Assembly (NCBI GenBank): GCA_965261395.1
Contig: OZ253462.1
Span: 128,001-192,000, forward strand
DNA: 64,000 nt
Source of the DNA: Candidatus Latescibacterota bacterium
GTDB lineage: Bacteria; Latescibacterota; UBA2968; UBA8231
Direction: 5' to 3'
Shown here: positions 356 through 64,000 of the stretch, piece after piece
Position numbering within the stretch: position 1 is the stretch's first letter
Layout: every line of letters starts with the position of its first letter
Made by a program: the position numbers and the translations under genes
Notes under the pieces: generated by a model
The model's database searches: none
Told to the model about the DNA's origin: nothing
Seen by the model: the letters and a program-made list of their open reading frames with translations, nothing else

Positions 356-482
356 ATAGTGCAAAAACTCGGACATAGAGGCGCAGACTCCTCTAGTAAG
401 ATTGGAAAGCAATCAGATTGGAGAGGAAGAGGGGGTTACTGAAAAATAAGCAAAAACGCGGTTTTTTGCATCTTGCGGCGCG

Positions 483-42720: not shown

Positions 42721-42756
42721 GAAGCATGAGGATTGGGTTGCCAGGAGGTTGATCGC

Positions 42757-44742: not shown

Positions 44743-44884
44743 CTCCCCACATAGAGTCAACCATCAACATCAGGGCATCCAGATATTCCACTTGCCATAC
44801 TTTTCCCAGATGCGACAGGCGTCACAGGTACACATCAACCGGAGTGCAAAACGCGGTTTGTTACCAAAACTTTCGAACTCTCAG

Positions 44885-46219: not shown

Positions 46220-46261
46220 GATTTGCTACTCGACCAGCCCCCAATCCCCAGCCCCCGCTTC

Positions 46262-46999
46262 TCAATGCTTACACGCCACATGTCGATCTTCATATATTCC
46301 CTTTAGAAACTTTTCTGGATTGAGTTCTTCGGGCAAATAATGCCATGCCGTACTATAGCGCGTGCGATTGCTGTGGTTATCATAAGCACCGTGCAAGAGA
46401 TTGGCGGAAAACAGAACAACCGTGCCAGCGGGAATGACCAGATCCACAGCCTGCGATTCATCGACCTCTGTCCAACTGCCATGCCTGCTTGGATCTCTGC
46501 GGTGCTCGACAATCTCGCCCATCCGGTGGCTGCCGGGCACCACCCGCAAACACCCATTCTCCACATCTGAATCTTCCAGATAAATTCCGCAACTGATAAT
46601 GCGATCCGTATCAGTCCCAAAATAAAAACTGTCCTGATGCCAGCCCGTTGACGTGCCGCCGTTGGGCAACTTCGGAAAGAACTTGGTGCCAAACACATCA
46701 AAATTTTCACCAATCAATACTGCTACACGGTCTAAAATCGCCGTTTCACGCGCCAGTTCCAACACGCGGGAATCGACCACGCAAACACCCTGAATTTTGT
46801 GCAACAAACCCGCCCGGGGTTCACCGCACTCGTCCAACTCGAGCGTCCAGTGCGGCACCTGCTCGGTCAGCTTGCGCCCCTCTGCGACTAGTTCATCAAA
46901 CACCTGCTTGTAATAGGCCAATCGCTCGCCTTGAATCAGGGTTTCAAAAACAAGATAGCCATCTTCTCGAAACTGCCGCGCCTGTTCGTCTGTCAACAT
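46262..46999 (-). CDS. PhyH-family Fe(II)/2-oxoglutarate dioxygenase
   Basis: WHQD, NGCLRVVPGSH, LLHGAYDN...R. Confidence 0.92.
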   Translation of the reverse strand: MLTDEQARQFREDGYLVFETLIQGERLAYYKQVFDELVAEGRKLTEQVPHWTLELDECGEPRAGLLHKIQGVCVVDSRVLELARETAILDRVAVLIGENFDVFGTKFFPKLPNGGTSTGWHQDSFYFGTDTDRIISCGIYLEDSDVENGCLRVVPGSHRMGEIVEHRRDPSRHGSWTEVDESQAVDLVIPAGTVVLFSANLLHGAYDNHSNRTRYSTAWHYLPEELNPEKFLKGIYEDRHVACKH

Positions 47000-47016
47000 T
47001 CTTGTTCCTCCTCAAG

Positions 47017-47033
47017 GTATAGGAAAAATAAGG
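47017..47033 (-). repeat. oriIS-like 17-mer (isolated copy)
   Basis: GTATAGGAAAAATAAGG is identical to 53249-53265 and one mismatch from 60937-60953. Confidence 0.6.
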
Positions 47034-47071
47034 GAATTATATATTTGACTTCACAAATCCGTTCAAAACAC

Positions 47072-47115
47072 AAAATCGGCGGTCAGATAGGGTTTCTATG
47101 CTGACCGCCGATTTT
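47072..47115. terminator. Bidirectional-type hairpin terminator
   Basis: AAAATCGGCGGTCAG / CTGACCGCCGATTTT perfect inverted repeat. Confidence 0.75.
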
Positions 47116-47139
47116 TCATTTTAGAAAAGGAGTTATGGG

Positions 47140-47427
47140 TTATGGAGACTCAGAAGGATTGTTTGGATTCGTTAAGGAATCATTTATTTCTTGTTGAATG
47201 TGCTTTACGCCATCTTGGAAACCTTGCTTTACGTGAGGCGGAATATCAGACCTTTGGACGCGATTTTCGTAAAACTCAAGATAAGTGCCAATAACTTGGG
47301 CAATTTGATCTCCATTAGGTATATGATTTTTGATATATCCTAATGTTCCTATTATTGCTTGAGTTGTTGCCATTCTTTGCCCTGAAAGATACTCAGATAT
47401 TTCTTCAGGGCTTTGAGGATTAGACAT
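47140..47427 (-). CDS. Hypothetical protein (AT-rich)
   Basis: 95-aa ORF with GGAG RBS and downstream terminator. Confidence 0.65.
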   Translation of the reverse strand: MSNPQSPEEISEYLSGQRMATTQAIIGTLGYIKNHIPNGDQIAQVIGTYLEFYENRVQRSDIPPHVKQGFQDGVKHIQQEINDSLTNPNNPSESP

Positions 47428-47798
47428 AGCTAAGTCTCCATTGGTTTGGGATGGTTCAGGCCAGAATTGCCGTCAACGTAACGGAATCCAGTAGCCCGGA
47501 TTTGGACGAAATTGCTCAAAATCGAGCGGAATCAGAGAAAGTAAGGAGAGAATTCCTTAAAATCAATACTTGCTCTGGTTGAAAAATCATTTTATTCTAT
47601 GGCCGTTCATACTCTTGTAGAGACCCCGTTTAGTCGGGTCTTCTACCCAATACAACAGCCAGAAAGACCCGGCAACAGGGTAGCTCCCTATTGCCCCGGC
47701 GAATAAGTGGAACTTCTCTGATTCTCTACGAGAGTGTGAACAGGCCCGGCCCCTTTAACGGGGGCCATCCCTGTTCACCTCAACAAAGGAGAATCGCC

Positions 47799-48401
47799 AT
47801 GAAGTTTGCGGTGTTTTTCGTCATTATCGCCCTATTTGCTTGTTCATCGGATAGTCCGGTAGGGCCTAATACGGAGTCTGAACCTGTATTAGAGTCTTCG
47901 GGCAAGGCGGTTGATATAGAAGCAATAGGCGGTCTGTTAAAAGGTCGCTGGTTTAATGTTCACGAACTTAGAGATTCGGATATAATATCATCTATTTGGA
48001 TTTTGGAAGTTCGTGAAATGCCCGGAGAGTCAAGCATTTTTGAATATGACTTAGCCCGGATATATGATGCGAGACAGGAATACTCTCTGAAAGATTACGG
48101 GGAGGAAATAGGTGGTGGAGCTTTCAACGATTTATTGACTTGGGAGTTTGTTGAACGGGGAAGAATCCGGCCATATTCTACGAATGACTCAGGTCATATT
48201 CTATTTGATAGGATATTCAATGATCTCTCTAAAGTCGTTGAAATCGAGATATTTTCTAGTAATCGAGTCATTGTATGGGATTCGATACTTAAAATATCTC
48301 GATGGGATTCATTTGAATATTCTTTAGGCAATCAGATTTTTTTGAATTGTGAAGAATATTCTGATAATGATATATGCCTTTTTGACTACGGTTTCAAATA
48401 A
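47799..48401 (+). CDS. Hypothetical lipoprotein (AT-rich)
   Basis: AAGGAG RBS; MKFAVFFVIIALFA-C lipobox. Confidence 0.7.
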   Translation: MKFAVFFVIIALFACSSDSPVGPNTESEPVLESSGKAVDIEAIGGLLKGRWFNVHELRDSDIISSIWILEVREMPGESSIFEYDLARIYDARQEYSLKDYGEEIGGGAFNDLLTWEFVERGRIRPYSTNDSGHILFDRIFNDLSKVVEIEIFSSNRVIVWDSILKISRWDSFEYSLGNQIFLNCEEYSDNDICLFDYGFK

Positions 48402-48489
48402 AGGAGTTTATGATGGTAAAGCGTGAAGCGATTCCTCAAGAAGTCCATGAGCAGGCCAACTGTCCACGTTCAAGAGAGGGAGGTAAATC

Positions 48490-49095
48490 TTGTCTTATTT
48501 AGTAGGAACTCTCATTGCTGTAATTACAGTATTTGCTTTTTCGCAGCCTTCAGTTGCCCGTGAAAACGAGTTGGAAAGCTGGTACATGTACTGGGGGTTT
48601 GGAGCTTCTGATAATGACCTTTTTGACGATGTAGACCTAGAGGGTACAGGGGTAAGCCATACCTCCCTGTCTGTGGATTCCTTTGGGTTTTATTGGCCGA
48701 GAGGTCAAAAAACACTGGTCGGCGGGGTCATTAATACTTTTGCCGATTTTTTTGAGGGAAGTGATCTTCTTTCTAGTGCCGAGATTAATTCCTATAACTC
48801 GCTTTACTCAATTTCTGCGATGCACTTTCTGTCTCCAAAGATAGGACAGGGATTTTTTGTGCGAGCGGATGCCGGATTAGCCCTTCACTATGCTGAAGTA
48901 AAACTCGATATATTAGGTAATGAAGCAGATTCCGAGTGGACAAGTGAATGGGGATCGGGGTTTCTGATAGGAGGAGGGTACGGACTTCCGATAACAAGCG
49001 GAACGCGATTGCTCCTTAATGCTAATGTCTCTCAGCGGTATGTTGAGGAGGAATCTATGACCAATGTTGGGATCACACTTAACGGGCTGTTTTAG
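48490..49095 (+). CDS. Probable small outer-membrane beta-barrel protein
   Basis: GGGAGG RBS, signal peptide, alternating aromatic/Gly strands, C-terminal Phe. Confidence 0.7.
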   Translation: MSYLVGTLIAVITVFAFSQPSVARENELESWYMYWGFGASDNDLFDDVDLEGTGVSHTSLSVDSFGFYWPRGQKTLVGGVINTFADFFEGSDLLSSAEINSYNSLYSISAMHFLSPKIGQGFFVRADAGLALHYAEVKLDILGNEADSEWTSEWGSGFLIGGGYGLPITSGTRLLLNANVSQRYVEEESMTNVGITLNGLF

Positions 49096-49233
49096 CTGGA
49101 GTTAAGAGCTAAAGAAGTCGATTTCCACTAAAATGGTGCCTGTGAGGGTTTCGACCAAGTGATAAGAGGTAGGCCGGGGAGACTGTCTGACGAATCGCCT
49201 CTTGCAGCCCCCGTGATCGACATTACACAACCC

Positions 49234-49640
49234 TTAGTTACGCACCCGTCCGGTCGCGTGCGTCGCGAGGCAGTTCGCCTCCTGCAAGGAGCCTAGCCGC
49301 CACACCGGATGCACTCGCACCAAGCCGAACTCCCGGTTGCCCCAGTGTCGGGGGGCGTCCTCGGTAGCAGCGCTACTGCGGAGGATGGACGCCCGAACCT
49401 GCTCCATTTCCCGAGCCAGATTCCCCTTGTATGGGAACGAGAGAGGGCACGTCGCAAGCGCTGGCCGGCGCATGCCCCGGTGGCGATGGTCCCTCGCACC
49501 GAGGCCGCCGTCAGGGCGGCCAGCACGGGCTCCTCATCGGCGAACTGATCGGCGTCGAGTAGGCCGTGTTGGGTACACAGGCGGATGATGAGGCGCGCAC
49601 TCGTCTGCACGATCTGCTGCACCTCTGGGTCGGACAACGG
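49234..49640 (-). pseudogene. IS91/ISCR-like (Y2) transposase internal fragment, interrupted by a repeat
   Basis: ...EEPVLAALTAASVRGTIATGACAGQRLRR resembles the segment before FSLHA in ISCR-type transposases; the frame then runs into the repeat at 49357-49445. Confidence 0.6.
49357..49445. repeat. Dispersed repeat, right module only
   Basis: GTCCTCGGTAGCAGCGCTACTGCGGAGG...GCCAGATTCCCCTTG...ACGAGAGA matches 61115-61202 and 55763-55835. Confidence 0.9.
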
Positions 49641-49645
49641 CGGGG

Positions 49646-49852
49646 CTGACAGCCGGAGAAATTGAGATCCTCACGCTGTTTGCCACTGGCAAATCGTACG
49701 CTCAGATAGCAGAGGTGAAGGGCAACAGCCCGATTACTGTTCGGAATGCCATCTACCGCATTTAAGATAGACTTGGAGTAAAGACCAAACAGGAAGTCGT
49801 AGGGTGGGCAGTGCGAAATGGCTTGCTGGGTGACATGCAGCTAGACGACTAG
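49646..49852 (+). pseudogene. LuxR/NarL-type HTH fragment with internal stop
   Basis: LTAGEIEILTLFATGKSYAQIAEVKGNSPITVRNAIYRI*DRLGVKTKQEVVGWAVRNGLL; TAA at 49763-49765; no start codon. Confidence 0.8.
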
Positions 49853-50143
49853 CGCCCGCTGGCAGCGGTCAGGTCAGACTTCGTAGGATGTACGACAGTT
49901 GAGGTTGTCGGTTCGGTTTCAGTTCCATTGAGACCTTCCAGCTGAACATTCGCAATACACAATAGACACGAAAAACTCAGGTAATCGTGGCTGGTGGGGC
50001 TAAAGCCAGCACGTAGTCGGACGACACCATTCGTGTGGGGTGGTATCGTCCCCGAGGAGGACCCGTTGTCTCCCCCTTCGGCATCCGATAGCCACCGCGC
50101 GGCCCGGTGAAAATGTAGGTGGGATTGCCCCACGGCATACCAC

Positions 50144-51616
50144 TCAAGCACCCCCACCTTTCGGTTCCGCCGATTGCGTTGACTGACTTTGCCCGCCCTC
50201 TCCAGCTGACATCACTAAGCGGTCCCAGTCGGGAGCGCTTCCATCTCGCAACAAAGCCAACAGAGTGTCTCGGGCCAACTGCCGACCATCGGACAGCGCT
50301 TTCCCAAGGTCAATCCGTTTCCGCCTTGCCCGTGACCCGTGGACCAAAGCGGAACGCGCACCATAGAAATCCTTGACTTTGCGAAATATCCCTATGCGTT
50401 CTTCACCGTTGGTCCCGAGGAGATACCCGGCGCGGGTTTCCAACTTATAGGTGATCTCTGGTGCGTCCAAGCTGTACATGGTCTCAAGAGCTATGGCGGT
50501 ATCTAGGATGCGGTCTTCTGTACCGAATCGCCCAACTCTCGAAGGCAAACCCCCGAGCCGTCGGATGGCAAGGCCAAGCCGATCCCGGTCGTCCTGGTAC
50601 ATTCGCCAAGCCCGAACCATTTCAAGAAAGACTTCTGCACTGTCCTCAGAAAAGTGATTCTCACGCCACCAGTCGTTCGCCCACCCCCCACCACTGGTCC
50701 ACCCGAATTTAACGTTGGGGTCCAGGTCCTCCATCCATTTGTCCACCCGCACATACTGCCGCCGCGATATTTGTTGTTCTCCAGTTGCAATACAGAGGAA
50801 GTCCCGTACCGTTTCGTGGTCCCTGGGGAATTGGTACGTGGACGACGGGTCTTCCATGGTTTCTTCCTCAAAGGAGAATCGGAACCGGGTATTTAAGATT
50901 TTCTCTGATTCCACCTCCGTCGAGGTAATTGCAGGCCCCCAGGTCAGTTCTCTGACGAGCGCCGCGATGCTCTCCGGAGCTTCATCCAAGGGATGACGCT
51001 GTTCGATGCCCGCTGGAAGGTGCCTAAGATTCAGGAACGGGAACTCGCCACAAATCGCTTTAGCCTCTTCGTAGGGAGCCAGGAACGCGCCATCCCCGAT
51101 GTCAAGGCGGCGATCCAACTTGAGTCCGTAGAATAGAGTAACCTCGTAAGCCTTGAGATCCCGGGCCTCACCCAGCGTCAGGAATCGGTGTAATGTCTCG
51201 GCGGCGTTGCTCCCGTCAGTTTTGATAGCCAGTTTGGTCAAGCTAAGCGCCAAGGTCTTTAGTTCGACACGAAACGCGCCGTATGGTCTTAGAAAATGAA
51301 CAGCTTGGCCTTGGCTGGAATGGTCCAACGCCTGGCGTATCACCGGATGTTCACATAGGGCTGCCTTCACATCGGCCGGGTCGTCATCAAACCATAGGTG
51401 GGATTCTTCGAATGCAACCTCCGCGCCGGGTTCATGTTGCGCCCTACTTGCCAGGGTGCGGTACTCCTCATATGACACCTGTCCGGTATATCTATGGACC
51501 CGTCCGAAATCATCGACTTCCTCATAGGGGACCATTGGTCTTACCCTTGGGGCCAGAGCCATCAGGCTGGCAGCCAACCCTTCAATCCAGCAACTAAGTT
51601 CGAAATCTTGCTTCAT
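50144..51616 (-). CDS. ApeA-like HEPN-domain protein
   Basis: C-terminal DTAIALETMY...ITYKL.TRA...FYGARSALVHG (E...RX4H); GAGGAAGG RBS. Confidence 0.75.
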   Translation of the reverse strand: MKQDFELSCWIEGLAASLMALAPRVRPMVPYEEVDDFGRVHRYTGQVSYEEYRTLASRAQHEPGAEVAFEESHLWFDDDPADVKAALCEHPVIRQALDHSSQGQAVHFLRPYGAFRVELKTLALSLTKLAIKTDGSNAAETLHRFLTLGEARDLKAYEVTLFYGLKLDRRLDIGDGAFLAPYEEAKAICGEFPFLNLRHLPAGIEQRHPLDEAPESIAALVRELTWGPAITSTEVESEKILNTRFRFSFEEETMEDPSSTYQFPRDHETVRDFLCIATGEQQISRRQYVRVDKWMEDLDPNVKFGWTSGGGWANDWWRENHFSEDSAEVFLEMVRAWRMYQDDRDRLGLAIRRLGGLPSRVGRFGTEDRILDTAIALETMYSLDAPEITYKLETRAGYLLGTNGEERIGIFRKVKDFYGARSALVHGSRARRKRIDLGKALSDGRQLARDTLLALLRDGSAPDWDRLVMSAGEGGQSQSTQSAEPKGGGA

Positions 51617-51880
51617 CCTTCCTCACCTCTTTTGGGAATTGGCTTCGTGCTCCGAACCCCCAAGCCGATCTGGAGGACGCATCATCACAGACCCCTTACA
51701 GGTTCTCCTTGTCAGGCGGTCCCTCTGAGTAGGACTGGAACAAAGCCGGCTACGTTCTCATCGAGTCGGGCGCTTTCCCGGTCGGCCCTTCGCCGACAGT
51801 CAGCAGGCCAGCCAAGCACGAGGCGTGGGAGGATGGCTCCACCAGCGCAGTGGAAAACATTCTCGCCCGCCGCAGTATCG

Positions 51881-53188
51881 TCACGGAACAGCCATGTAGA
51901 ACTCCATCAAGTGGGGGAGTAGACTCAGCGCATGGAGGTGCTCTCCTAGCTGAGAGACGAACACTGACTCAGTATCATCTGGGTCAATGTTGTCAGACGC
52001 TACGTGAAACACAATGTTCCGAAAGTATCTAAGCTTGGGCGGAACGGCTTGCGGTCCCGCAATTCCTTCAATCTCATCGTGTCGTAACTCAGGAAACTCT
52101 TCGACAGCCTGGTGGTATATCCTCAGAGGTTCGGCAAGCAATGCGGTACTCACGCGCACCGGAGCAATCAGGTTTTGAGCCTGCTGATCGGTGATTGAGC
52201 TAGTATCCATGACCAATAAATCAAAGGGGCTGTGGGCATCCAGTTCAGTCCGGCTTCTGATTGCTCGTAACTTGCTGATGTCGAGTAGATTCACAAACTC
52301 ATTTGACAGTACCAGAGACCGCATCAGAATTCTCACGCAGTCCGTCTTAGCCTCCTGAACAAAGGATGGATAGCGTGGCCCATGGCTGACATTGTGCTTT
52401 CTGAACAACCCGAGCATATACCATGTTCGCAGGTTAAACGGTGTCTGGGTTGATTCATCAGTTGGGGTGTTGTATAAGCCGGGCAATGGACGCGAGAAAA
52501 CTTCCCACCTCTTATGCAATTTTGAAAGTTTGTCCTTGTCAGCTGGTCCAGAAGATTTGTTGGCGCGAAGTAACTCTTCGCCGACCAACTCGGATAATGA
52601 CCATCGGAGCCATGCTGCATACGCATCAATTGCCGACTGAGCCTTAAACACAGTGGAGTAGTAGTGACCATCTATCCCTCCGCCAGTCTCCATGAAGTTG
52701 TCGAGTGCGTCATGGAGATGTATTCGTTTAGCAGGATGCAACACCTTATCCCTAAGAGTGGTCAGATGTTGAATAGTAGTCTCGTTGGACTGGAACAAGG
52801 CTTCGAGGGGATCGAAGAGGAGGGCTGGGTCTCTTCTTGACTCCCTTCTATAACTCTCCAATTCCGCAGAGAGTAGGCACAAGTACATTTCCCATGGAAC
52901 CCAAGTCACAAACTCCAATATCCTGCGACTATTTAAGTCTGGGTCGAGGTCTTGGTCTTGGAACATCAGGTTATATACGGCGTCAATGTCCCTGTCATCG
53001 ATCAGTTGGGACATGCCTAGATTCTTCATCACACGAGTTTGGTGGTTGATATTGCGGAATGCAATGACGCGAACACCTTCCAATATGACACTCCGGTGAT
53101 ACTGAAGGTTTCGGTAGTGCTTTATTGCCTCATTCGGCAAATGGCTTCGCATTTTCTTATAGGCACCCTTATGTTTATCGGTCATCAT
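51881..53188 (-). CDS. Hypothetical helical protein with two HEPN-like RX4H motifs
   Basis: LRDKVLHP and FRNIVFHV in apparently duplicated halves. Confidence 0.6.
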   Translation of the reverse strand: MMTDKHKGAYKKMRSHLPNEAIKHYRNLQYHRSVILEGVRVIAFRNINHQTRVMKNLGMSQLIDDRDIDAVYNLMFQDQDLDPDLNSRRILEFVTWVPWEMYLCLLSAELESYRRESRRDPALLFDPLEALFQSNETTIQHLTTLRDKVLHPAKRIHLHDALDNFMETGGGIDGHYYSTVFKAQSAIDAYAAWLRWSLSELVGEELLRANKSSGPADKDKLSKLHKRWEVFSRPLPGLYNTPTDESTQTPFNLRTWYMLGLFRKHNVSHGPRYPSFVQEAKTDCVRILMRSLVLSNEFVNLLDISKLRAIRSRTELDAHSPFDLLVMDTSSITDQQAQNLIAPVRVSTALLAEPLRIYHQAVEEFPELRHDEIEGIAGPQAVPPKLRYFRNIVFHVASDNIDPDDTESVFVSQLGEHLHALSLLPHLMEFYMAVP

Positions 53189-53248
53189 TCAAATCCCCAA
53201 TGTTCAATGGATTGCGACGCTCAGATATCGGAGGCGGCTGTATGTTAT

Positions 53249-53419
53249 GTATAGGAAAAATAAGGCCCGATGTCGGTACTATGCAGTTCGCTGAAAACGT
53301 ACGCAAGGGGCCAGCAGGGTCCCTGATGAATCGCTTGTCGTCGTCCAGCATCGTTCGGGACTGCTCTCAGTACCGTTGTAAAGGATTTCTGTGCGTTTCA
53401 GGGGTCAGCCCGGTACTTG
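53249..53419. repeat. Dispersed repeat, left module with oriIS-like end
   Basis: Aligns by eye with 60937-61108 (…CGGTACTATGCA.TTCGCTGAAAACGTACGCAAGGGG…TTTCAGGGGTCA). Confidence 0.9.
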
Positions 53420-53634
53420 AGGGTGCACTCCTCCGTACCGCTCACGGCGCCGGGAGCGAATCGGGAGGAGGTCAGGCAGCGAACTCAAACTGCGGCTGAG
53501 GCGGGCCCTCGGCGGGGGCACCGCCGGCAGCCTTACCCCGCATCAGCACATCACGCCGGTCCGTCTTCACCCGCTCCCCACTGCGACGCGAGATCCGACT
53601 CGGTGCCACCACCTCGCACCGGTGGCCCGCTTGG

Positions 53635-55589
53635 CTACTTCGGTCGCGCGAAGGCAACGAGCGCGGCGTCTGGCCCGGTGCCCGTCGCGATGACGATGAA
53701 CTGCCGCCCCGACCGCGCCCGGTAGGTCATCGGGTTCGCGTTCGTTGGAAACGGCGTCGCGCCACGCCAGACCTCGGTGCCCGTCGCCTTGTCGAACGCA
53801 TATAGGTACGGAGTGCCGCCGCCGAGGAACACGAGGCCCCCCTTGGTCACCATCGGGCCGGAGTTGCCGCGCGTGCCCAGCCGCTCCGGCAGCTCGACGC
53901 CGCGCAGCAGCGGGTGATTGCGGATCTCGGGGCTGCCCTCACCGAACGGTATCTTCCACGCAATCTCGCCAGCATCGAGGTCAATAGCCACTAGGTGCGC
54001 GTACGGCGGCTTGATGAGCGGAATCGGGCCGAGCTTGCTCTCCGGGGTTTGCGCGGTGCCCGGTCCGTCGGCCTCCCGAAACATGAGGAGCGACGCACCC
54101 CATAGGGACAGTTGTTGCTGTACTCGACGTCGACTTCCGGGTCGTTGCCCGCATTCTCGCACAACTGGTTCGTGTCGGCGTCTTCCGATGTCCGAACGTA
54201 CAGCAGCCCGGTCTCGGGATCAAAGGCCGCCCCGCCCCAGTTCGCGCCGCCGCTGGCGCCCGGGCGCTGGAGCGTCCCCTGAAGACTCGGCGGCGTGAAG
54301 AGCGGACCCAGCCGGAACCGCTGCATCTCCTCCACCGCGAGCGCGTGGATCTCCGGCGTCAGATCGTTCGCGTCCTCCAGCGACACCCCCTGCCTGCTGA
54401 AAGGCGGCGGCTTGGTCGGGAACGGCTGCGTCGGATACAGCACCTCGCCCGGCACGTCCGTCGTCGTGTCCACCGCACGCTCCTCGATTGGCCACACCGG
54501 CTCGCCCGTCACCCGGTCGAACACGTACGTGAAGCCGTGCTTGGAAACCTGCGCCACCGCGTCGATCTCGCGCCCGTCCACCGTTACCGTCACGAGGTTC
54601 GGCGCTGCGGACAGGTCGTAGTCCCACACGCCGTGATGCACCGCTTGGAAGTGCCACTGCCGCTCACCCGTGCGCACGTCGAGGCACACCAGCGACTCGG
54701 CGAAGAGGTTCGCCCCCACCCGGCGGCCACCCCAGTAGTCGCTGCTCGGCGTGCTCGTCGGCACGTACAGCAGCCCGCGCTCGGCGTCGAGCGATATCAG
54801 CCCCCACACGTTGGCGTGGCCGGTGTAGCGCCACGACTCGTCCTCATAGGTGTCCGCGCCGAAGTCGTCGCTCGATTGCGGGATGGTGAAGAAGACCCAG
54901 CGGCGCTCGCCCGTGCGGGCGTCGAACGCCTGCACGGTTCCGGGGGTGTCGAACTTTCGCTGCAGCCGGTCAGGCACGCGGCTTCCCACGATCACTAGGT
55001 CCTCGAACACCACCGGCGGCGAGGTCTGGTCGAACTCGTGGCGGGTCACCGGGCGGCCATGGCCCTCGGTCAGCACAACGCTCCCGCTCTCGCCGAAGTC
55101 CGTGTCTAGCTCGCCGGTCGCGGCATCGATTGCGTACAGCCGGTCGCGGCTGTTGAGGAAAACGCGGTCGTCGTCGCCGTCGCTCCAGTAGGCGATACCC
55201 CGGTGCTTGAAGCCCCTCGGCCCCACACCCTTGGGCCCACCTTCGTAGGCCTTGGGATCAAAGGTCCACAGTTCGGCACCCGTCTCCGCGTCGAGAGCCA
55301 CCACACGCGTGTACATGGTGGAGAGGTAGAGGACGTTGCCGATCATGATGGGCGTTGCCTGGAATGGGCCCGGCCGGATGCCGTACTCCGCGAGGGGCAT
55401 CTCGTTCGGCTCCCATTGCCAGACGATCTCCAGTTCGTCGACATTCGCGGCCGTGATCTCCTCAGCCGCCGAGTACTTAGTGGGCGCCTGCTCGGCACCG
55501 ACGTACGGCCATTCAATCATGACGCCCGATTCCTGGGCGCCTGCGAGGGTGGTAAACAAGAGGGCGGCTGTCGCAACGAATCGCTTCAT
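53635..55589 (-). pseudogene. PQQ-dependent (quinoprotein glucose dehydrogenase-like) enzyme, frameshifted
   Basis: FQATP, HRGIAYW, WHFQAVHHGVWDYD, PTQPFP, GGANWGG; the C-terminus (KPPYAHL..., ANPMTY...GRQF) is in a different frame, shift near 54098-54101. Could be a sequence error. Confidence 0.85.
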
Positions 55590-55630
55590 GGAGGGGAATC
55601 CGATTGGAGAATGGAAACTAGTTTCGCGGC

Positions 55631-55666
55631 GTATTCTACGTATTCTAGGTATTCTACGTATTCTAG
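55631..55666. repeat. 9-bp tandem repeat x4
   Basis: GTATTCTAC GTATTCTAG GTATTCTAC GTATTCTAG. Confidence 0.9.
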
Positions 55667-55683
55667 ATATCATGGGTCGGCAA

Positions 55684-55840
55684 TATGCAGTTCGCTGAAA
55701 ACGCACGCAAGGGTCCAGCAGGGTCTCTGATGAATCGCTTGTCGTCGCACAGAATCGTTCGGGCTACTGCGGAGGGTGGATGCCTGAACCTGCGCCATTT
55801 TCCTAGCCAGATTCCCCTTGCCTGGGGACGAGAGAATGCC
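55684..55840. repeat. Dispersed repeat, internally deleted copy
   Basis: Left module up to ATCGTTCGGG joined directly to CTACTGCGGAGGG of the right module. Confidence 0.9.
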
Positions 55841-56145
55841 CCTATCCGCGCTGAGCTACCAGCAGGACTATGAAGAGACCGGGAGATGGCGAAAACACTG
55901 GTGGCAAAAGATCGCAGCACGGGTGAAGAAAATGGATAGAAAGCCTGGGTTGGCTACGCAGTCGACGGCGACAGTCGAAATCGTCGGGACAGGGTACGAC
56001 TTCATGACGAACCACGCTCCCCGAAGATAAAAGGCGTGTAGTACGAACCCGAGGGAAGTTACAGTGTCGAGGTGTAGGGGCTCGTCGGGAAGGCCGAATG
56101 GACCCGTCCGGCGAGATTTGTATGCGATCATTTTGCATCGGCTAC

Positions 56146-56178
56146 TTGACAATCAGCCGTAAACACCGTAAGCTTACA
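56146..56178 (+). promoter_or_regulatory. Promoter for a probably leaderless HTH mRNA, overlapped by candidate operator 1
   Basis: TTGACA-17 nt-TAAGCT ends 6 nt before ATG 56181, no SD; GTAAACACCGTAAGCTTACA at 56159-56178. Confidence 0.7.
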
Positions 56179-56180
56179 AC

Positions 56181-56525
56181 ATGTCCAAGACGTTGGGTGA
56201 GCGTATTCGCGAGCTGCGTGATCAGGCAGATCTCTCCCTACGCGACCTGTCAAAGAGGACCGGTGGCCTGACGGCTGCTTTCCTTTCGGATATTGAGCTG
56301 GGGCGACGTTTTCCCTCAGATGATGCCCTTGTCCGTTTGGCCAAGGCGTTGGGGACGACAGTCGAGGATCTTCGAACCTACGACACGCGTCCGCCAGTAC
56401 AAGAGATCAAGCGGTTATCCGCGCAGAATCCCGCAATCGGTGCGGCTTTTCGTAAGATCACCGAGATGACGCCGGAAGAGATACTGAAGATGGTTGAGAA
56501 ATCGACAAGAAAGAAAAAAAAGTGA
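56181..56525 (+). CDS. XRE-family HTH repressor, CapH-like
   Basis: LGERIRELR...LSLRDL...FLSDIELGRRFPS; coupled to a metallopeptidase gene. Confidence 0.88.
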   Translation: MSKTLGERIRELRDQADLSLRDLSKRTGGLTAAFLSDIELGRRFPSDDALVRLAKALGTTVEDLRTYDTRPPVQEIKRLSAQNPAIGAAFRKITEMTPEEILKMVEKSTRKKKK

Positions 56526-57217
56526 GGAGTCTACGCGCGGATTCGGGTCCCTTCACGGAGAAGCCATTCTTCACCGAGAGCGAGATCGAACGAATGTGCG
56601 AGTGTGCCCTCCGCGAAGCAGGATATTACCCTTCCGAACCGTCGCGGGTGAACATCGACCGGTTTATCGAGAAGCACTTTGATGTTTCGCCACAGTTCGA
56701 GGATCTTCCGGAAGGAGTTCTCGGTTACTCTTGCTTCGGCGGCGATGGAATGATCAGCATGCACATTACGACGGCACTTACAAACGCGGGAACGCGAGTA
56801 GCCGAACGTCGCGTGAACACGACCCTAGCGCACGAGGCAGGTCACGGGCTGTTTCACTCATATCTCTTCAGCCTTGCTGAAGCCGGGTTAGAGCTTTTTG
56901 AGTCTGATCCCGATGTGACAAAGACTAGGATCCTCTGCCGCGATGAGAATACGCAACGGCAGAAGGTCAACGGGCGATGGTGGGAGACTCAGGCAAATAT
57001 GGCGATCGGTCCCCTGCTGATGCCAAGATCACTTGTCGTGGAAGTGGTTAAGCCATTTCTTGTCTCTACAGGCCTCTTGGGAATCGGGGATGTGCCTGAA
57101 GATAAGCGCGAGAATGTGGTCGCGACGCTCTCCGACGTTTTCGACGTTAACCCTGTCGTGGCGCGTATTCGATTGGAGGGAATTTTCAAGCCCTCGGGGG
57201 GGCAGCTGTCGCTCTGA
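56522..57217 (+). CDS. ImmA/IrrE-family Zn metallopeptidase, CapP-like
   Basis: TLAHEAGH, internal ILCR Cys, WETQAN...LLMP, FDVN...ARIRL. Confidence 0.88.
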   Translation: MRSLRADSGPFTEKPFFTESEIERMCECALREAGYYPSEPSRVNIDRFIEKHFDVSPQFEDLPEGVLGYSCFGGDGMISMHITTALTNAGTRVAERRVNTTLAHEAGHGLFHSYLFSLAEAGLELFESDPDVTKTRILCRDENTQRQKVNGRWWETQANMAIGPLLMPRSLVVEVVKPFLVSTGLLGIGDVPEDKRENVVATLSDVFDVNPVVARIRLEGIFKPSGGQLSL

Positions 57218-57234
57218 TTTTTTTTGGATAAGAT

Positions 57235-57254
57235 GTAATCATTGTCAGCTTACA
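57235..57254 (+). promoter_or_regulatory. Candidate operator 2 upstream of the ubiquitination genes
   Basis: GTAATCATTGTCAGCTTACA, 16/20 identical to 56159-56178; both are GTAA-N11-TTAC. Confidence 0.6.
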
Positions 57255-57321
57255 TAAGCTTCTATTGAACCTGAATTCCGGTCTCTATGGACGAGCCGGG
57301 ATTGCGAGTAAAGGAGAAACA

Positions 57322-57390
57322 ATGGAAAAAATTTTGACTTACCTTCGATATGGGAACCAACCGATGTCCATCAGAAAGGAAACCAACTGA
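57322..57390 (+). CDS. 22-aa upstream mini-ORF coupled to the Ubl gene
   Basis: AAGGAG RBS; MEKILTYLRYGNQPMSIRKETN; TGATG overlap with the Ubl start. Confidence 0.4.
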   Translation: MEKILTYLRYGNQPMSIRKETN

Positions 57391-57656
57391 TGTCCACCCC
57401 AAAGAAGATTTCAATCACCGTAGTCGTCAACGGCCAGCCAACTGTGGTCGATGCCAGCCAAGATGAACCCCTCGGTACGATTATTCCTGATGCGTTGCGT
57501 CAGACAGAGAACTCGGGCCAGCCACCAGAGAATTGGGAGCTCCGCGGTGCCGATGGGACGCTTCTTGACCTAGACAAGAAGATCGAGGACTACGGCTTCC
57601 CATCCAAGGTCCGCCTGTTCCTGAATCTCAAGGCGGGGGTTGGAGGCCATGGTTAA
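57390..57656 (+). CDS. bilA: Ubiquitin-like protein (DUF2604-like), Bil system
   Basis: Beta-grasp-like sequence, GQPPENWELR, LFLNLKAGVGG-HG C-terminus. Confidence 0.85.
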   Translation: MSTPKKISITVVVNGQPTVVDASQDEPLGTIIPDALRQTENSGQPPENWELRGADGTLLDLDKKIEDYGFPSKVRLFLNLKAGVGGHG

Positions 57657-58254
57657 CGCGACCGAACAGCATGTAGACCCCGAGGTATCCCGTACCAAGT
57701 TCGATCGCGAGATTACCGAGTACCTTTCCCTTGAGGCTGACTACCGCGCCCGGGGCTGGTTTCTTGTGAAGGCGGACTGGCCTGTGGCAGTCGTTGTTCT
57801 GGCCTCGAATAAGACCAGCCCGCCGGCGATTGTGACCGCCGTCCAGTTCGACTATACGAACTATGACGCCGAGCCGCCCTCAGTTCGCATGACTGATCCG
57901 TTCTCCGGCCGATTTCTTCTAAGCAAGGAGCTCCCCACCCGCCTCCTTCGCGCGATCCCCGGACCGGAGATGCCCCTACCGAACGGCACCAAGGTGCAGC
58001 AGGTATCGGTGCAGGAGCTGATGCAGGCTCACTCTCCGGAAGACCAACCCTTCCTCTGCGTAGCCGGGGTCAAGGAATATCACGACCACCCTGGCCATTC
58101 CGGTGACCAGTGGGAAATACACCGGTCCGCTGGCGAAGGTCGGATGGTTCGCCTGTTGGAGGTGATTTCCAAGTACGGCCTCGAACCGGTGCAGGGGTTC
58201 AACGTCAACCTCGTACCGCAAGTTACCTTCACTGTCTCGGAGCCTCCCCAGTGA
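57649..58254 (+). CDS. bilB: E2-like conjugating enzyme, Bil system
   Basis: DYTNYDAEPPSV, FLCVAGVKEYHDHPGH; position between Ubl and JAB genes. Confidence 0.8.
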   Translation: MVNATEQHVDPEVSRTKFDREITEYLSLEADYRARGWFLVKADWPVAVVVLASNKTSPPAIVTAVQFDYTNYDAEPPSVRMTDPFSGRFLLSKELPTRLLRAIPGPEMPLPNGTKVQQVSVQELMQAHSPEDQPFLCVAGVKEYHDHPGHSGDQWEIHRSAGEGRMVRLLEVISKYGLEPVQGFNVNLVPQVTFTVSEPPQ

Positions 58255-58742
58255 CCCTACGAGGCGTGCGGCGTTTTCGAATCCAGGCGAGTGCCATACG
58301 CGAAACCATGGAGGCGATTCGGTCTGCAGGACAGGATGGCTACGAGTTGTTCGTAGTATGGTCGGGTACGCGTGATGACGACATCTTCACCGTCGCCAAG
58401 GTGCATATCCCTAAACAAACCTCCTACAAACTCGATGCCGGACTCTGCGTACGAGTTGACGGTCCTGAGCTCCATCGCTTGAACATGTGGCTCTACGAGG
58501 CACAGCAGGCCATAGGAGTGCAGGTCCACGGTCATCCAGCCGATGCCTATCACTCGGAAACCGACGACACCTACCCGATCGCCACAATGCACGGAAGCCT
58601 ATCCATCGTCCTTCCCTTCTTCGGCCACGACGGCTGGGAGTCAAGTGATATCGCGGCCTATCGTCTCGGGCAAGACGGATGGGTCGAACTAACCGGCCCC
58701 TTGAGTGACCTGATAGAGGTTGTTGACAATGGCGTTAGCTGA
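58251..58742 (+). CDS. bilC: JAB/MPN metallopeptidase, Bil system
   Basis: N-terminal GYE, QVHGHPADAYHSETDD (HxH-X7-S-X2-D-like); GTG start overlaps the E2 stop. Confidence 0.88.
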   Translation: MTLRGVRRFRIQASAIRETMEAIRSAGQDGYELFVVWSGTRDDDIFTVAKVHIPKQTSYKLDAGLCVRVDGPELHRLNMWLYEAQQAIGVQVHGHPADAYHSETDDTYPIATMHGSLSIVLPFFGHDGWESSDIAAYRLGQDGWVELTGPLSDLIEVVDNGVS

Positions 58743-60234
58743 CTATTTCCCTCGCGACGCGGTCGCCATCTCGCAAGTGCTCCAGGGGTTTCAACGCGAC
58801 GCCTTCATCGAAAAGCTCGAGGGTGTCCGAGTGGCAATCGCCTTCGGCGAGGAGGCGGCTACCAGCCGCGACGGGCGCGAACTCCTTGATCTCTCTGTCA
58901 GGCTAGCGGCTCGCTTGTACCCGAGCCTGACGTTTGCCACCGTTCCTGCCGGAGATCGGTTCGCCGATGAACTGATGGCGTTGGCCAGTAGCATCAACCC
59001 TAACATCGAAGCGTCTAAGACGGGTACTGCTAATGTTGGTCTCTCGATCGGCGGGGATGCACCGGCCCTAAACGCACCAACCGTATATGCTGGCTGCGAT
59101 GGCTGGCTGGCCAAGGTGGGAACTGAGGGCCCATACATGACCAGCGACCTAGGGAACCCCTTTGGAGCCGGCTTCGCCGCCTGCTTGGCGGCAGCCAACT
59201 TGTTTCGCTTCCTCTTCCTCCCCAACGGCACAACTTTGCTGGATACCGACATTAGTTTCCCTCCCGACGACGCCTCTTTCCCCAGTCTTGCGGCGTCCAC
59301 ACTGGCGGATCCCCTGGTGTTGGTCGGCGTTGGGGCGGTCGGCAACAGTGCCTCCTGGGCCCTATCGCGTACGCCGCTCACCGGCCAGATTTACCTAGTC
59401 GATCCACAAGTCGTCGAACTTAGCAATCTCCAGCGCTACGTTCTTGGTGCACGGAGCGACGAAGGCGGCATCAAAGTTGATGTCGCTGCGAAGGAGTTTC
59501 GCGCCGCGCTACAGGCGCTTTCTCATCATGGAACATGGGCTTCCTTCCTCTGCGCCAATGGCTACAAGTGGGAACGCGTTCTAGTTGCCCTCGACTCCGC
59601 CCATGACAGGCGAGCCGTACAAGGGAGCCTGCCACGTTGGATCGCTAACGCATGGACCCAAATAGGCGATCTCGGCGTGTCCTCTCACTCTTTCTTGGGT
59701 CAAGACGCCTGTCTTGCCTGCCTTTACTTGCCAACCGAGAAATCCAAGAGCGAAGACCAGATCGTCGCTGAAGGCCTTAAGATCCCTCAATTCCAGGATC
59801 CGGTTCGCTTTCTGCTCGGAAGCGGGCAGGCGACCGGCAAGGAGCTCTGTGACGCGGTTGCTGCCGCTTGGGGCATCCCGGCCGAGACACTGGAGCCTTA
59901 TATAGGTAGGTCGATACGTGAACTTTGGGTGGAGGGCATCTGTGGCGGCGGTATCATTCCTCTCGGAGAAGCCGGACCTACTCCGGGAGACCGGCAAGTT
60001 CCGCTTGCTTTCCAATCGGCTCTTGCCGGTATGCTGCTGGCCGCGGAAACGGTACGCGACGTGTTGACCGACGGTGCTCAACGCAAGACCCTCATGCGCC
60101 GGCTTGATGTCTTGCGCCCCTTAGGCGATCCTTCACCCCAACCGGCGCTCAAGGCCGGAACGGGTAGCTGTATCTGTGAGGATCGCGATTTTATTACTAC
60201 CTATCGAACAAAGTATGGAGCAGAAACTGGCTGA
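58729..60234 (+). CDS. bilD: E1-like ThiF enzyme with N-terminal inactive-like domain, Bil system
   Basis: GVGAVG, DPQVVELSNLQRY, ALDS, CLAC, candidate catalytic ICGG, C-terminal CIC. Confidence 0.88.
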   Translation: MALADYFPRDAVAISQVLQGFQRDAFIEKLEGVRVAIAFGEEAATSRDGRELLDLSVRLAARLYPSLTFATVPAGDRFADELMALASSINPNIEASKTGTANVGLSIGGDAPALNAPTVYAGCDGWLAKVGTEGPYMTSDLGNPFGAGFAACLAAANLFRFLFLPNGTTLLDTDISFPPDDASFPSLAASTLADPLVLVGVGAVGNSASWALSRTPLTGQIYLVDPQVVELSNLQRYVLGARSDEGGIKVDVAAKEFRAALQALSHHGTWASFLCANGYKWERVLVALDSAHDRRAVQGSLPRWIANAWTQIGDLGVSSHSFLGQDACLACLYLPTEKSKSEDQIVAEGLKIPQFQDPVRFLLGSGQATGKELCDAVAAAWGIPAETLEPYIGRSIRELWVEGICGGGIIPLGEAGPTPGDRQVPLAFQSALAGMLLAAETVRDVLTDGAQRKTLMRRLDVLRPLGDPSPQPALKAGTGSCICEDRDFITTYRTKYGAETG

Positions 60235-60289
60235 CTTTGATGGCTGATTGGAGCGGGTTAGCTGATCGACCCGCTCTAGGCATCGAGTC

Positions 60290-60622
60290 CTACGCCTCAA
60301 CAAGCCAATCCTCACACGGTTTATACCCTTCATTCACCGCATCCTGATAGTAAGATGTGAGGCCAGAGACGGCCCTATTAAGGGCATGCGCAGGATCATC
60401 GGCGCACGGAAGGCTGGTCCGGTAGGCATCCACCTGCCTAGGCGTATGAATCACATGGCTGACCTCAAAGGTTGTCTTTTCGCTGCTCATAAATCTACAA
60501 AGTCTTATGGTGATGTGAGTCTTAAGATCTCCAAGCCGGATGACGAACCTTCCTAGGTCATCATCTCGTTCAAGTACGGTGATGAGATCCTGGTCCAAGA
60601 CGTTATCAAAGGTGTAAGGCAT
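60290..60622 (-). CDS. Hypothetical protein (110 aa)
   Basis: GAGGAGGAG RBS; convergent with the Bil operon. Confidence 0.75.
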   Translation of the reverse strand: MPYTFDNVLDQDLITVLERDDDLGRFVIRLGDLKTHITIRLCRFMSSEKTTFEVSHVIHTPRQVDAYRTSLPCADDPAHALNRAVSGLTSYYQDAVNEGYKPCEDWLVEA

Positions 60623-60936
60623 CGAACTCCTCCTCTGTGAGTTGGTTTAACTTCTCTATGTGCCGGGCCAAGGGAGGAACGTCCGTGCTGACTTCGACCC
60701 CTCCCTTTGGATGGCCCGGCAACTCTTCTCAATCCTGCTTCGTTGGTGGCTAGGGGCCTACTACCGGCTTGAGTAAGGGCTTTGTTTTTGTGACGGTCAC
60801 CGTTAGATCCTCAAAGGCGACTTCTTGGTTGCCACCAACAAAGACACCTACACTCCCTCCATAAGCAGTAAAACCCCGCCAATACCGACTATTCCAAACA
60901 TAGCGTCTGCACTGGCATCTTTTCCTAAATAGAAAT

Positions 60937-61210
60937 GTATAGAAAAAATAAGGCACCGATATCGGTACTATGCAATTCGCTGAAAACGTACGCAAGGGGT
61001 CAGCAGGGTCCCTGATGAGTCGCTTGGTCGTCGCACCGAATCGTTCGGGAATGCTCAGAGCACCGTTGTAAAGGATTTCGGCGCGTTTCAGGGGTCAACC
61101 TAGTACTTCCCCCCGTCCTCCGTAGCAGCGCTACTGCGGAGGGTGGACGCCCGAACCTGCGCCATTACCCGAGCCAGATTCCCCTTGCTTGGAAACGAGA
61201 GAACGCCCTT
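60937..61210. repeat. Dispersed repeat, fullest copy (~270 bp); candidate non-autonomous IS91-like element
   Basis: Contains the oriIS-like end, the left module and the palindromic right module seen separately elsewhere. Confidence 0.85.
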
Positions 61211-61222
61211 TATTATTTCTAA

Positions 61223-63415
<2,193 letters not shown>

Positions 63416-63460
63416 TCTCAGCGGGGTGCTCGGTAACGGTGGTCTCCGGTGCATCTGAGG

Positions 63461-63511
63461 GCCGCCTTGTGACTCCGTCGATGATGCCCGCCGACGGAGT
63501 CGCAAGGTGGC
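63461..63511 (+). terminator. 20-bp stem-loop downstream of katG
   Basis: GCCGCCTTGTGACTCCGTCG / CGACGGAGTCGCAAGGTGGC with two G-U pairs; no clear U-tract. Confidence 0.5.
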
Positions 63512-63585
63512 AACCCAAGGCAAAACAACCGGATACGACGCGAAATTCTTTGGCGGCCCCAAGGTCGCGCTCTTCGAGTCCCACT

Positions 63586-64000
63586 ATGGCCCATCGTCCT
63601 CGCATCCTCTTCCTCGCCCGCCGCTACCCGCCCACCATCGGTGGCATCCAGACCCACTGTCACGCGCTCTATACCCGACTGGCCAACCAAGCCCAAGTCC
63701 GTCTCGTCGCGCTGGGCCGCCAATCGCTTCTGCATCTAACTTGGTTCCTCCCCTATTGCTTCGCTGTCGCCTTTTGGGCCGTGCTCGGCCGCCGCGTCGA
63801 TGCCGTGTACTTCGCCGACGGGGTCGCCGCGTCGTTGGCTCCACTCCTGCGTCCTTTGGGTCCGGCGCGATTCGTCACCACCGTCTATGGCCTCGAAATG
63901 ACCTACAAAAATCCCCTCGCGCGCGCGCTGATGCACTGGGGAGTCCGCGCCTGCGACAAGGTCGTCGTCATCAGCGAACACAGCCGCCGCATTACCGCTG
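63586..64000 (+). CDS. Glycosyltransferase family 4, N-terminal part (runs off window)
   Basis: Not in ORF track: MAHRPRILFLARRYPPTIGGIQTH...TVYGLE...DKVVVISEHSR. Confidence 0.8.
   Translation, partial: MAHRPRILFLARRYPPTIGGIQTHCHALYTRLANQAQVRLVALGRQSLLHLTWFLPYCFAVAFWAVLGRRVDAVYFADGVAASLAPLLRPLGPARFVTTVYGLEMTYKNPLARALMHWGVRACDKVVVISEHSRRITA

Follow-up and report, generated by a model that had tools for sequence, protein, structure and literature searches.

To our knowledge, ISCR elements have been studied almost solely as carriers of antibiotic-resistance genes in Proteobacteria, and the evidence for their mobility is still mostly indirect. The oriIS region of ISCR1 spans 232 bp, contains two outward promoters and raises downstream expression 13-15-fold, and variable genes abut this end, often in the same orientation (PMC6218425, excerpt). 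For IS801 of Pseudomonas syringae pv. phaseolicola, fragment movement was seen experimentally: 26% of events yielded right-end fragments, with lengths of 229, 360 and 679 nt, and upstream DNA was occasionally carried along; the fragments are bounded by defined tetranucleotides, many truncated copies are present per genome, and most genomic fragments were ascribed by the authors to reorganisation rather than to one-ended transposition (PMC3189936, excerpt). IS91 is described as producing no target duplication, as having a subterminal palindrome in oriIS and as using the tetranucleotide CTTG as its target at oriIS (PMC13181058, excerpt).

The window analysed here is a 64-kb stretch of contig OZ253462.1 from Candidatus Latescibacterota, and sequence comparison identifies the repeats within it as decayed remnants of the right (oriIS-side) end of an ISCR-like insertion sequence (IS) of the IS91 family in this phylum. 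The element is of a known kind; the phylum is new for it. Resemblance to ISCR1 and the plasmid ISCR-type elements extends to a Y2/HUH transposase sharing both Pfam domains, a non-coding tail that runs about 225-230 nt past the stop codon and closes in TTCCTATAC, multiple copies in direct orientation and, as in ISCR1, variable and often co-oriented genes abutting the oriIS end. However, the host belongs to an uncultured FCB-group phylum, the site is chromosomal and lacks a class 1 integron, the window contains truncated copies only, and in place of resistance genes the cargo comprises oxygenases, a dehydrogenase, a Bil-like system and HEPN-like genes. The "defence and stress" cargo of the original prediction stands for the Bil-like system, the HEPN-like genes and katG, but the oxygenase and dehydrogenase genes and genes of unknown function fall outside it. 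The features are collected in Table 1.

Table 1. Insertion sequence remnants, cargo and flanking genes in the window
Feature	Position	Strand	Basis
PhyH-family dioxygenase gene	46262..46999	-	Pfam PF05721, E 1.7e-32; co-oriented, immediately downstream of IS end
Solo terminal 17-mer, module A of IS right end	47017..47033	-	Exact 17-mer; orthologous to full-copy end in L005
Mosaic cargo block, 13.9 kb	47034..60934	.	Absent from closest relative; direct 17-mer copies at both borders
Module D alone: GC-rich stem-loop and about 55 nt	49356..49444	-	92% to 61114-61202
Internal IS91/ISCR-family transposase fragment, residues ~202-279	49446..49670	-	87 protein matches; tblastn with P0005 at 49652-49428
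Modules A-B-C, non-coding IS tail ending in oriIS 17-mer	53247..53418	-	88.5% to full copy; contiguous with module E
Module E: last transposase codons (...PQPQFEFAA) and start of tail	53419..53545	-	ORF end compared with C-termini of P0005 and other proteins; hhalign E 1.7e-4
Deleted copy, B joined to most of D	55676..55841	-	Repeat search, BLASTN, locus comparison
Longest copy, A-B-C-D, between cargo and katG	60935..61210	-	Orthologous in L001, L002, L005, L006
katG (catalase-peroxidase), conserved right flank	61283..63415	+	Pfam peroxidase, E 3.8e-73

Five pieces sharing one orientation had been predicted, and BLASTN of positions 60900-61250 against the window recovered all of them within a few bases of their predicted positions and all on the + strand. 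The clear matches ranged in E from 3e-24 to 6e-59 and comprised 53247-53418 (88.5%, E 6e-59), 49356-49444 (92.1%, E 2.5e-32) and the adjoining segments 55677-55763 (E 7e-27) and 55763-55841 (E 3e-24), each at 88.6%; 47014-47033 matched at 18/20 positions (E 0.06), and no comparable match was found within positions 1-47000. A separate repeat search of the window yielded the same repeat families. The terminal 17-mer CCTTATTTTTCCTATAC, with up to two mismatches allowed, was found three times, always on the minus strand (47033-47017, 53265-53249 and 60953-60937), as against none in 100 shuffles. The short piece at 47017 is homologous and not a chance match, as in the closest relative (L005) a full copy ends in this 17-mer at an equal distance of 17 nt from the PhyH start; in the window the PhyH start codon likewise comes 17 nt after the solo 17-mer, which has CTTG directly beyond it. 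The repeats are 170-290 nt long, and module A, module C and the beginning of D have been lost from the copy at 55676..55841.

On the minus strand the order is the transposase 3' end (E), a 223-nt tail of C, B and A, and a terminus closing in the 9-mer given above. Within module E the stop codon occupies 53472-53474 and the C-terminal codons, for the last ~15 residues, 53475-53519; the ORF ending at 53472 closes like the 475-480-aa proteins described below. Module E also follows C in L002, L003, L004 and L006, and twice in L007. Longer stretches of the gene survive in three of these loci: in L004 the segment 9138-9863, with a Pfam Y2_Tnp match (E 3e-14), continues into module E, in L006 transposase residues 306-480 directly adjoin C-B-A, and L003 retains residues 399-479. 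Both in the window and in four related loci, remnants of an IS91-family transposase gene precede the 17-mer by about 223-228 nt, and copies are located at synteny breakpoints, so that the refutation proposed with the original prediction did not come about. Its statement that ISCR oriIS ends contain the 9-mer was borne out on real ISCR records: in three of the five plasmid ISCR-type elements fetched, ISCR1 among them, TTCCTATAC occurs once per element, on the transposase strand, 230, 242 or 343 nt past the stop codon. Conservation of the 9-mer at nearly the same distance from the stop codon despite 38-41% transposase identity points to a conserved recognition or nick site. A palindrome (GCACCGATATCGGTGC), which may correspond to the subterminal one of IS91, finishes 16 nt before TATAC in most copies; shuffled sequences folded as stably as this region (z -0.6 to -1.3). 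Of the target tetranucleotides of the family (CTTG/GTTC), CTTG follows two of 15 ends, which represent one orthologous junction (PhyH), and AT follows ten of the 15. The CTTG at PhyH recalls IS91, with which a lack of target duplication may also be shared. IS91 differs in that CTTG is found here at one independent junction only, and also in its orf121, which the Latescibacterota element lacks.

The transposase fragment at 49446-49670 matches 87 database proteins at E<=1e-3 and is 84% identical to the best of them; PF04986 was found in 69 of the 87 and PF14319 additionally in 19. The full-length proteins among the matches are 475-480 aa long and contain both IS91 domains (Zn_Tnp_IS91 and Y2_Tnp). 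One full-length relative, P0005, is 38-41% identical to ISCR1, ISVsa3 and other plasmid IS91-family transposases and scores highest among NCBIfam models on ISCR_clade_Ia, with 364 bits against a cut-off of 925 bits; on the NCBIfam IS91 model the score is 108 bits, also below the cut-off (125 bits). No intact transposase gene or whole element was found in the 64-kb window or in the seven related loci, and what is left in the window is residues ~202-279 at one place and the last ~15 at another, with none elsewhere. The predicted term "non-autonomous" therefore applies in that every copy in the window lacks a whole transposase gene, a sense limited to this window. The claim that a repeat interrupts a transposase fragment was not confirmed: the piece at 49356-49444 adjoins 49446-49670 on one side, and no continuation was found beyond its far side (score within the shuffle range, hhalign E 0.2).

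Module D may be the left (terIS-side) end of the element. It contains a GC-rich stem-loop, and all three D copies share a sharp boundary at TCTCTCG next to unrelated flanks; comparison of D with the reverse complement of A-B-C gave no significant similarity, and none of the D copies seen lies upstream of a transposase start. Two other classes of element were considered and rejected. A MITE is a short non-coding unit with terminal inverted repeats and a target duplication; the window contains no inverted copy of the end, and D and reverse-complemented A-B-C are not significantly similar. An integron comprises an IntI integrase with attI and attC sites; no integrase or recombinase match was obtained among the 54 ORFs scanned (24 + 30), and the repeat is IS-derived. 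A cassette array resembles the locus in its row of unrelated genes with a same-orientation repeat copy between each, but the Latescibacterota repeat lies upstream of genes, is 170-290 nt long, is joined to the transposase gene and has no attC-like architecture.

At least 17 further pieces were found in seven related loci of six genomes. The genome scan was performed with an exact 23-mer, which matched only seven of the 15 B-containing pieces later found in the same loci, and copy numbers are therefore lower bounds. Five of the seven loci surround the same PhyH/katG neighbourhood with different cargo in each, and none of the seven has the window's cargo blocks, while the flanks are shared; the katG flank is 88-95.5% identical at the nucleotide level in L001, L005 and L006. 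L005 lacks the 13.9 kb lying between two 17-mers, as determined by junction alignment (window 46231-47033 corresponds to L005 9176-9978 at 98.1%, and window 60934-64000 to L005 9959-13030 at 95.5%). The direct repeat bordering the 13.9 kb is the IS end itself, and this "empty site" may itself have arisen by deletion between two copies. Identity among the copies is 77-97%, no two being the same, which indicates that they are old and gives no sign of recent movement. At the place equivalent to 55676-55841, L006 still has the terminal motif, and the copy on the PhyH side in L007 belongs to the E type. The six related genomes form a natural series, with oriIS ends marking the borders of changing cargo, that could be used to weigh transposition against recombination in ISCR-associated gene stacking.

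We consider it probable, with good confidence, that the copies are relics of an ISCR-like element brought in by one-ended or rolling-circle events and later reshaped. Under this model the copies would have arrived by IS91-type events in which the oriIS end was always kept and the other end variably cut, flanking DNA probably being carried along in some of them; deletion and homologous recombination between direct repeats would then have reshaped the array. The pieces would today most likely be immobile landmarks, although some may still drive or permit transcription of a co-oriented gene starting 17-72 nt beyond the end. The remnant reading accounts for the repeats and gene fragments and for the mosaic appearance of the window at 47-61 kb. 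IS801 offers a parallel in its retention of the right (ori) end with variable inner cuts (PMC3189936, excerpt). However, sharp inner boundaries like those of IS801 could not be placed in the Latescibacterota copies. Rolling-circle capture may have caused the stacking of cargo, as originally predicted; recombination and deletion among the relics would account equally well for much of the variation, including the pattern of presence and absence.

That recombination did everything has a little less than an even chance. According to this reading, one or a few old insertions supplied nothing but homology, and stacking and cargo differences all stem from homologous recombination, deletion, inversion and unrelated insertions. 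It is in keeping with the katG-side copy, which is orthologous across five genomes at 88-95% identity, with the inversion between two inverted copies in L001, with the permuted order of the FAD-oxidoreductase and PhyH genes between genomes and with the internal deletion that produced the 55676-55841 copy, and the view taken of IS801 is the same (PMC3189936, excerpt). However, copies at the unrelated loci L003 and L004 show that the element did transpose, and inner ends cut at transposase residues 298, 306, 399 and ~465 with the oriIS end kept form the pattern expected from one-ended transposition.

By analogy with ISCR1, the IS ends may supply outward promoters, as had been suggested. The further proposal that the tail is a domesticated promoter or regulatory module, kept and copied for driving the gene beyond the end like the ISCR1 POUT, appears rather unlikely. 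Five independent ends are followed by co-oriented genes that start 17, 27, 32, 60 and 72 nt away, which leaves no room for promoters of their own, and the predicted distances to the PhyH ATG and to the ATG of the 435-aa double-HEPN gene hold, measuring 17 nt and 60 nt; the katG-side copy has not diverged more quickly than katG. At about ten of 13 independent ends the gene ahead, at some distance, is co-oriented, but this is weak against an expectation of 50%, three ends point at the 3' end of a convergent gene, and the tail upstream of PhyH is reduced to 17 nt in the window. A sigma-70-type scan placed no minus-strand site inside any copy, a type that may not be that of the host phylum.

It is distinctly unlikely that the ISCR-like element built an integrase-free, integron-like array in which the oriIS/CTTG junction beside PhyH was re-used as an entry point, cargo stacked in one orientation, each tail promoted the next gene, and A-B-C-D (~290 nt) was a complete miniature element movable in trans. 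We regard as highly doubtful, too, an active non-autonomous capture element, with tnpA-less A-B-C-D units or solo oriIS ends mobilised in trans by an intact transposase elsewhere, segments entering at the oriIS/CTTG junction and cassettes stacking by PhyH in the manner of an integron attI site. Both borders of the 13.9-kb block are formed exactly by the terminal 17-mer, the CTTG after the PhyH-side end is the IS91 target (PMC13181058, excerpt), and the block nearest PhyH has a GC content of 42% against about 60% elsewhere, as expected for a recent arrival. Intact 475-480-aa transposases are present in related genomes (e.g. the 476-aa P0031 in OZ244619.1), and IS91-family transposases work in trans (PMC3189936, excerpt). 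However, only 17 nt are left at the PhyH-side end, compared with the 82 bp of the IS91 right end tested as sufficient (PMC13181058, excerpt), and the single independent CTTG junction, the divergence of every copy from every other and the lack of an intact transposase in the 64-kb window also argue against current activity.

That the repeats are copies of a structured non-coding RNA gene or leader, as a repeated ~270-nt intergenic unit with local hairpins and a terminator-like hairpin with T-run (60968-60953, minus strand) might suggest, is extremely improbable and was disfavoured by the Rfam and covariation analysis proposed with the original prediction: no Rfam family reached its gathering score in the window, an E-value threshold gave two matches that both lie outside the repeats (E 0.95 and 4.3), folding z-scores were -0.42 and -0.60, an 11-copy alignment had a covariation term of +1.54 with compensatory changes in just three of 46 pairs, and the sequence is continuous with the transposase gene.

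The longest copy of the repeat (60900-61250) was used as a BLASTN query against the whole window and returned four strong matches and one short match, every one on the plus strand, bearing out the five same-orientation pieces described in the original prediction (see table). No comparable match was found by BLASTN in window 1-47000, and repeat finding gave the same families. For the terminal 17-mer (CCTTATTTTTCCTATAC), the window has three minus-strand occurrences, versus zero in 100 shuffles. The repeat family is modular. Common inner boundaries of the E-type copies were suggested by BLAST clusters; however, alignment shows degenerate homology extending further, and a sharp inner boundary can therefore not be claimed for these copies.

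Repeat matches, modules and copies in the window, and transposase residues in the window and related loci
Feature	Position or residues	Strand	Detail
Repeat match	53247-53418	+	88.5%, E 6e-59
Repeat match	49356-49444	+	92.1%, E 2.5e-32
Repeat match	55677-55763 and 55763-55841	+	88.6% each
Repeat match, short	47014-47033	+	18/20, E 0.06
Module A			terminal ~20 nt
Module B			~89 nt
Module C			~64 nt
Module D	61114-61210, 49356-49444, part of 55763-55841		~95 nt; one of two alternatives after C
Module E	53419-53545		other alternative after C
Window copy	47017		A alone
Window copy	49356		D alone
Window copy	53247		A-B-C-E
Window copy	55676		B-D with internal deletion
Window copy	60935		A-B-C-D
Transposase, L006	306-480		tblastn with P0005
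Transposase, L004	298-393		tblastn with P0005
Transposase, L003	399-479		tblastn with P0005
Transposase, window	202-279 and 466-480		tblastn with P0005

A collection scan using one 23-mer of module B as the query identified seven loci (L001-L007) in six Candidatus Latescibacterota genomes, containing 17 A-B-C pieces as located by BLAST in addition to E-only and D-only pieces. The ORF running into module E in L004 matches Pfam Y2_Tnp (E 3e-14). In the window, a 75-residue fragment (49446-49670) yielded 87 protein matches in a large protein search (best 84% identity), with PF04986 in 69 and PF14319 also in 19, the full-length matches being 475-480 aa long. This transposase fragment was recognised solely through that search, the 125-aa ORF at 49293-49670 being unrecognised by Pfam and NCBIfam and the 75-aa piece having no match in a tblastn search of plasmids. 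The C-terminus of the 475-480-aa proteins (...PQPQFEFAA) also closes a window ORF with its stop at 53472. Using P0005, a full-length relative of the transposase, in tblastn, fragments only were found in the window and the related loci. The fragments and the C-terminal match together place the transposase 3' end (E), a 223-nt tail (C, B, A) and the terminus in this order on the minus strand. On the left side of module D at 49356, further transposase sequence was not supported. A LuxR/GerE-type helix-turn-helix gene fragment (49592-49765, plus strand; Pfam GerE E 8.5e-5) is wedged beside the transposase fragment.

The best NCBIfam model for P0005 was ISCR_clade_Ia (364 bits versus a cut-off of 925), and the IS91 model scored 108 bits (cut-off 125). 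P0005 matched at least 5000 plasmid records and, among the 25 listed, was 38-41% identical to the transposases of ISCR1, ISVsa3 and other IS91-family elements. Five plasmid ISCR-type elements were fetched for comparison of their ends. TTCCTATAC is present once, on the transposase strand, in three of them, 230 nt after the transposase stop in ISCR1 and 242 and 343 nt after it in the other two, confirming on sequence the ISCR oriIS motif that the original prediction had named. It is absent from the remaining two, one with sul2 ~90 nt and the other with another IS ~270 nt past the transposase stop. A second TTCCTATAC in L001 (8314-8322) falls within the reading frame of an esterase and was taken as chance. 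For ISCR1, the oriIS region is reported to span 232 bp and to contain two outward promoters, followed by a variable stretch that is mostly co-oriented (PMC6218425). The architecture of the repeat matches that of known ISCR elements, the pieces are shown to be a real feature and their identity as an IS end is established; the element itself is of a known kind, in a host that is new for it. No paper in the literature collection searched joins Latescibacter with IS91, and the literature naming both Latescibacter and ISCR includes community surveys with unrelated titles.

In the closest relative, L005, the flanks of the array adjoin: window 46231-47033 equals L005 9176-9978 (98.1%) and window 60934-64000 equals L005 9959-13030 (95.5%), so that PhyH, one A-B-C-D copy and katG are contiguous there. 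The window has an extra 13.9 kb with the 17-mer on both borders, and its cargo blocks are found in none of the seven loci, which carry different cargo between different repeat copies. The left flank (41208-44864), PhyH, the FAD oxidoreductase gene and katG are present among these loci in changed order. L003 and L004 have unrelated neighbourhoods, indicating that the element is dispersed. The repeat copies are 77-97% alike, none being identical, and five genomes share an orthologous katG-side copy.

The constant oriIS end, the variety of points at which the inner ends are cut and the direct orientation are consistent with IS91-type events. Transposition in this family begins at the right end and terminates at the left end or at sites resembling it. 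With IS801, 26% of events yielded right-end fragments (229, 360 and 679 nt), and upstream DNA was sometimes taken along (PMC3189936). IS91-family insertion is described as producing no target duplication and as placing oriIS beside a tetranucleotide, CTTG for example (PMC13181058). At the PhyH junction, TATAC is followed directly by CTTG. Old insertions later reshuffled by recombination also fit, given the inversion between copies in L001, the gene order permuted between genomes and the copy at 55676, which is a deletion. The empty site in L005, which lacks the 13.9 kb between 17-mers, could likewise have arisen by deletion, with an E-type and a D-type copy as its end points; the difference may be a gain in the window lineage or a loss in L005. 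Capture is a putative mechanism for the stacking of the cargo.

Outward promoters had also been proposed, and the gene distances given with them were reproduced: the ATG of PhyH lies at 17 nt and that of a 435-aa gene at 60 nt. Co-oriented genes start 17, 27, 32, 60 and 72 nt past five independent ends, and three ends face convergent genes. A sigma-70-type promoter scan found no minus-strand site inside any copy; module A may partly match the Bacteroidetes -7 motif. The alternative of a non-coding RNA failed, as Rfam gave no family at gathering score (two weak matches by E-value threshold both lie outside the repeats), full-copy folding of both strands was no better than that of shuffles and the consensus fold of 11 copies was without covariation support. 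A coding reading was dropped because an indel ends the short frame MQFAENVRKG..., open in three copies, after 19 codons.

Three window copies of module D, each with unrelated flanks, share one sharp start, which reads TCTCTCG on the minus strand; the module also contains a GC-rich stem-loop. Since a GC-rich stem-loop (PMC3189936) and a cleavage site CTCG or GTTC (PMC13181058) have been reported for IS91-family left ends, module D may by analogy represent the left end, in which case A-B-C-D would be a miniature element. Module D was seen beside a transposase start in no case in the window and loci, which hold transposase fragments only. Comparison of module D with an inverted, diverged oriIS tail gave nothing significant outside an AT-rich stretch of 12-16 nt, and the single plasmid copy of IS801 was too little to place its left and right ends for comparison. 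Just past module D in L002 (18646-18654, plus strand), facing katG, TTCCTATAC forms another, oppositely oriented end motif, which is degenerate at this place in the other four genomes.

Among the cargo, window 56181-60234 (plus strand) holds a defence-type operon in which a CapH/CapP-like regulator pair (CapH-like HTH, padloc E 9e-15; CapP-like peptidase) is followed by a predicted Bil-like ubiquitin-like conjugation system comprising a DUF2604 ubiquitin-like protein, a Metal_CEHH protein, a BilC-like protein and a BilD-like E2/E1 fusion (Prok-E2_C + ThiF). Two genes at 50144-53188 (minus strand), encoding proteins of 490 and 435 aa, both have HEPN-type Rx4H motifs and may form a defence pair; the 490-aa protein is HEPN-like, resembling HEPN-domain clusters (Atlas score 0.97), and the 435-aa protein has two such motifs and no family match. 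The PQQ dehydrogenase gene (53635-55706, minus strand) is probably frameshifted, as it is split into two overlapping ORFs covering Pfam profile positions 1-452 and 484-595. Just the two ends of this gene are left in L006 (7064-7412). Four tandem repeats of a 9-bp unit (GTATTCTAC/G; 55631-55666) lie between the start of the dehydrogenase gene and the IS piece, and L006 has a single unit at this place. The block 47034-49100 is AT-rich (42% GC versus ~60% GC for the window) and contains a strong hairpin terminator (47065-47122), a lipoprotein-like ORF, a 95-aa ORF and an ORF whose last residue is F, as in an outer-membrane barrel, its small genes having no family matches.

The FAD oxidoreductase gene precedes PhyH in the window (44871-46999) and follows it in L001 (reverse strand) and L006, with the same relative orientation. 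In these loci, an IS right end repeatedly adjoins a dioxygenase gene of the PhyH family (window 46262-46999; L001 6933-7826; L002 9152-9910; L006 3491-4261 and 5299-7209); the four different genes concerned have a mutual identity of only 21-27%. Just downstream of katG, L006 carries a 150-nt copy (19107-19256) of an internal katG segment (window 61547-61696, 83%).
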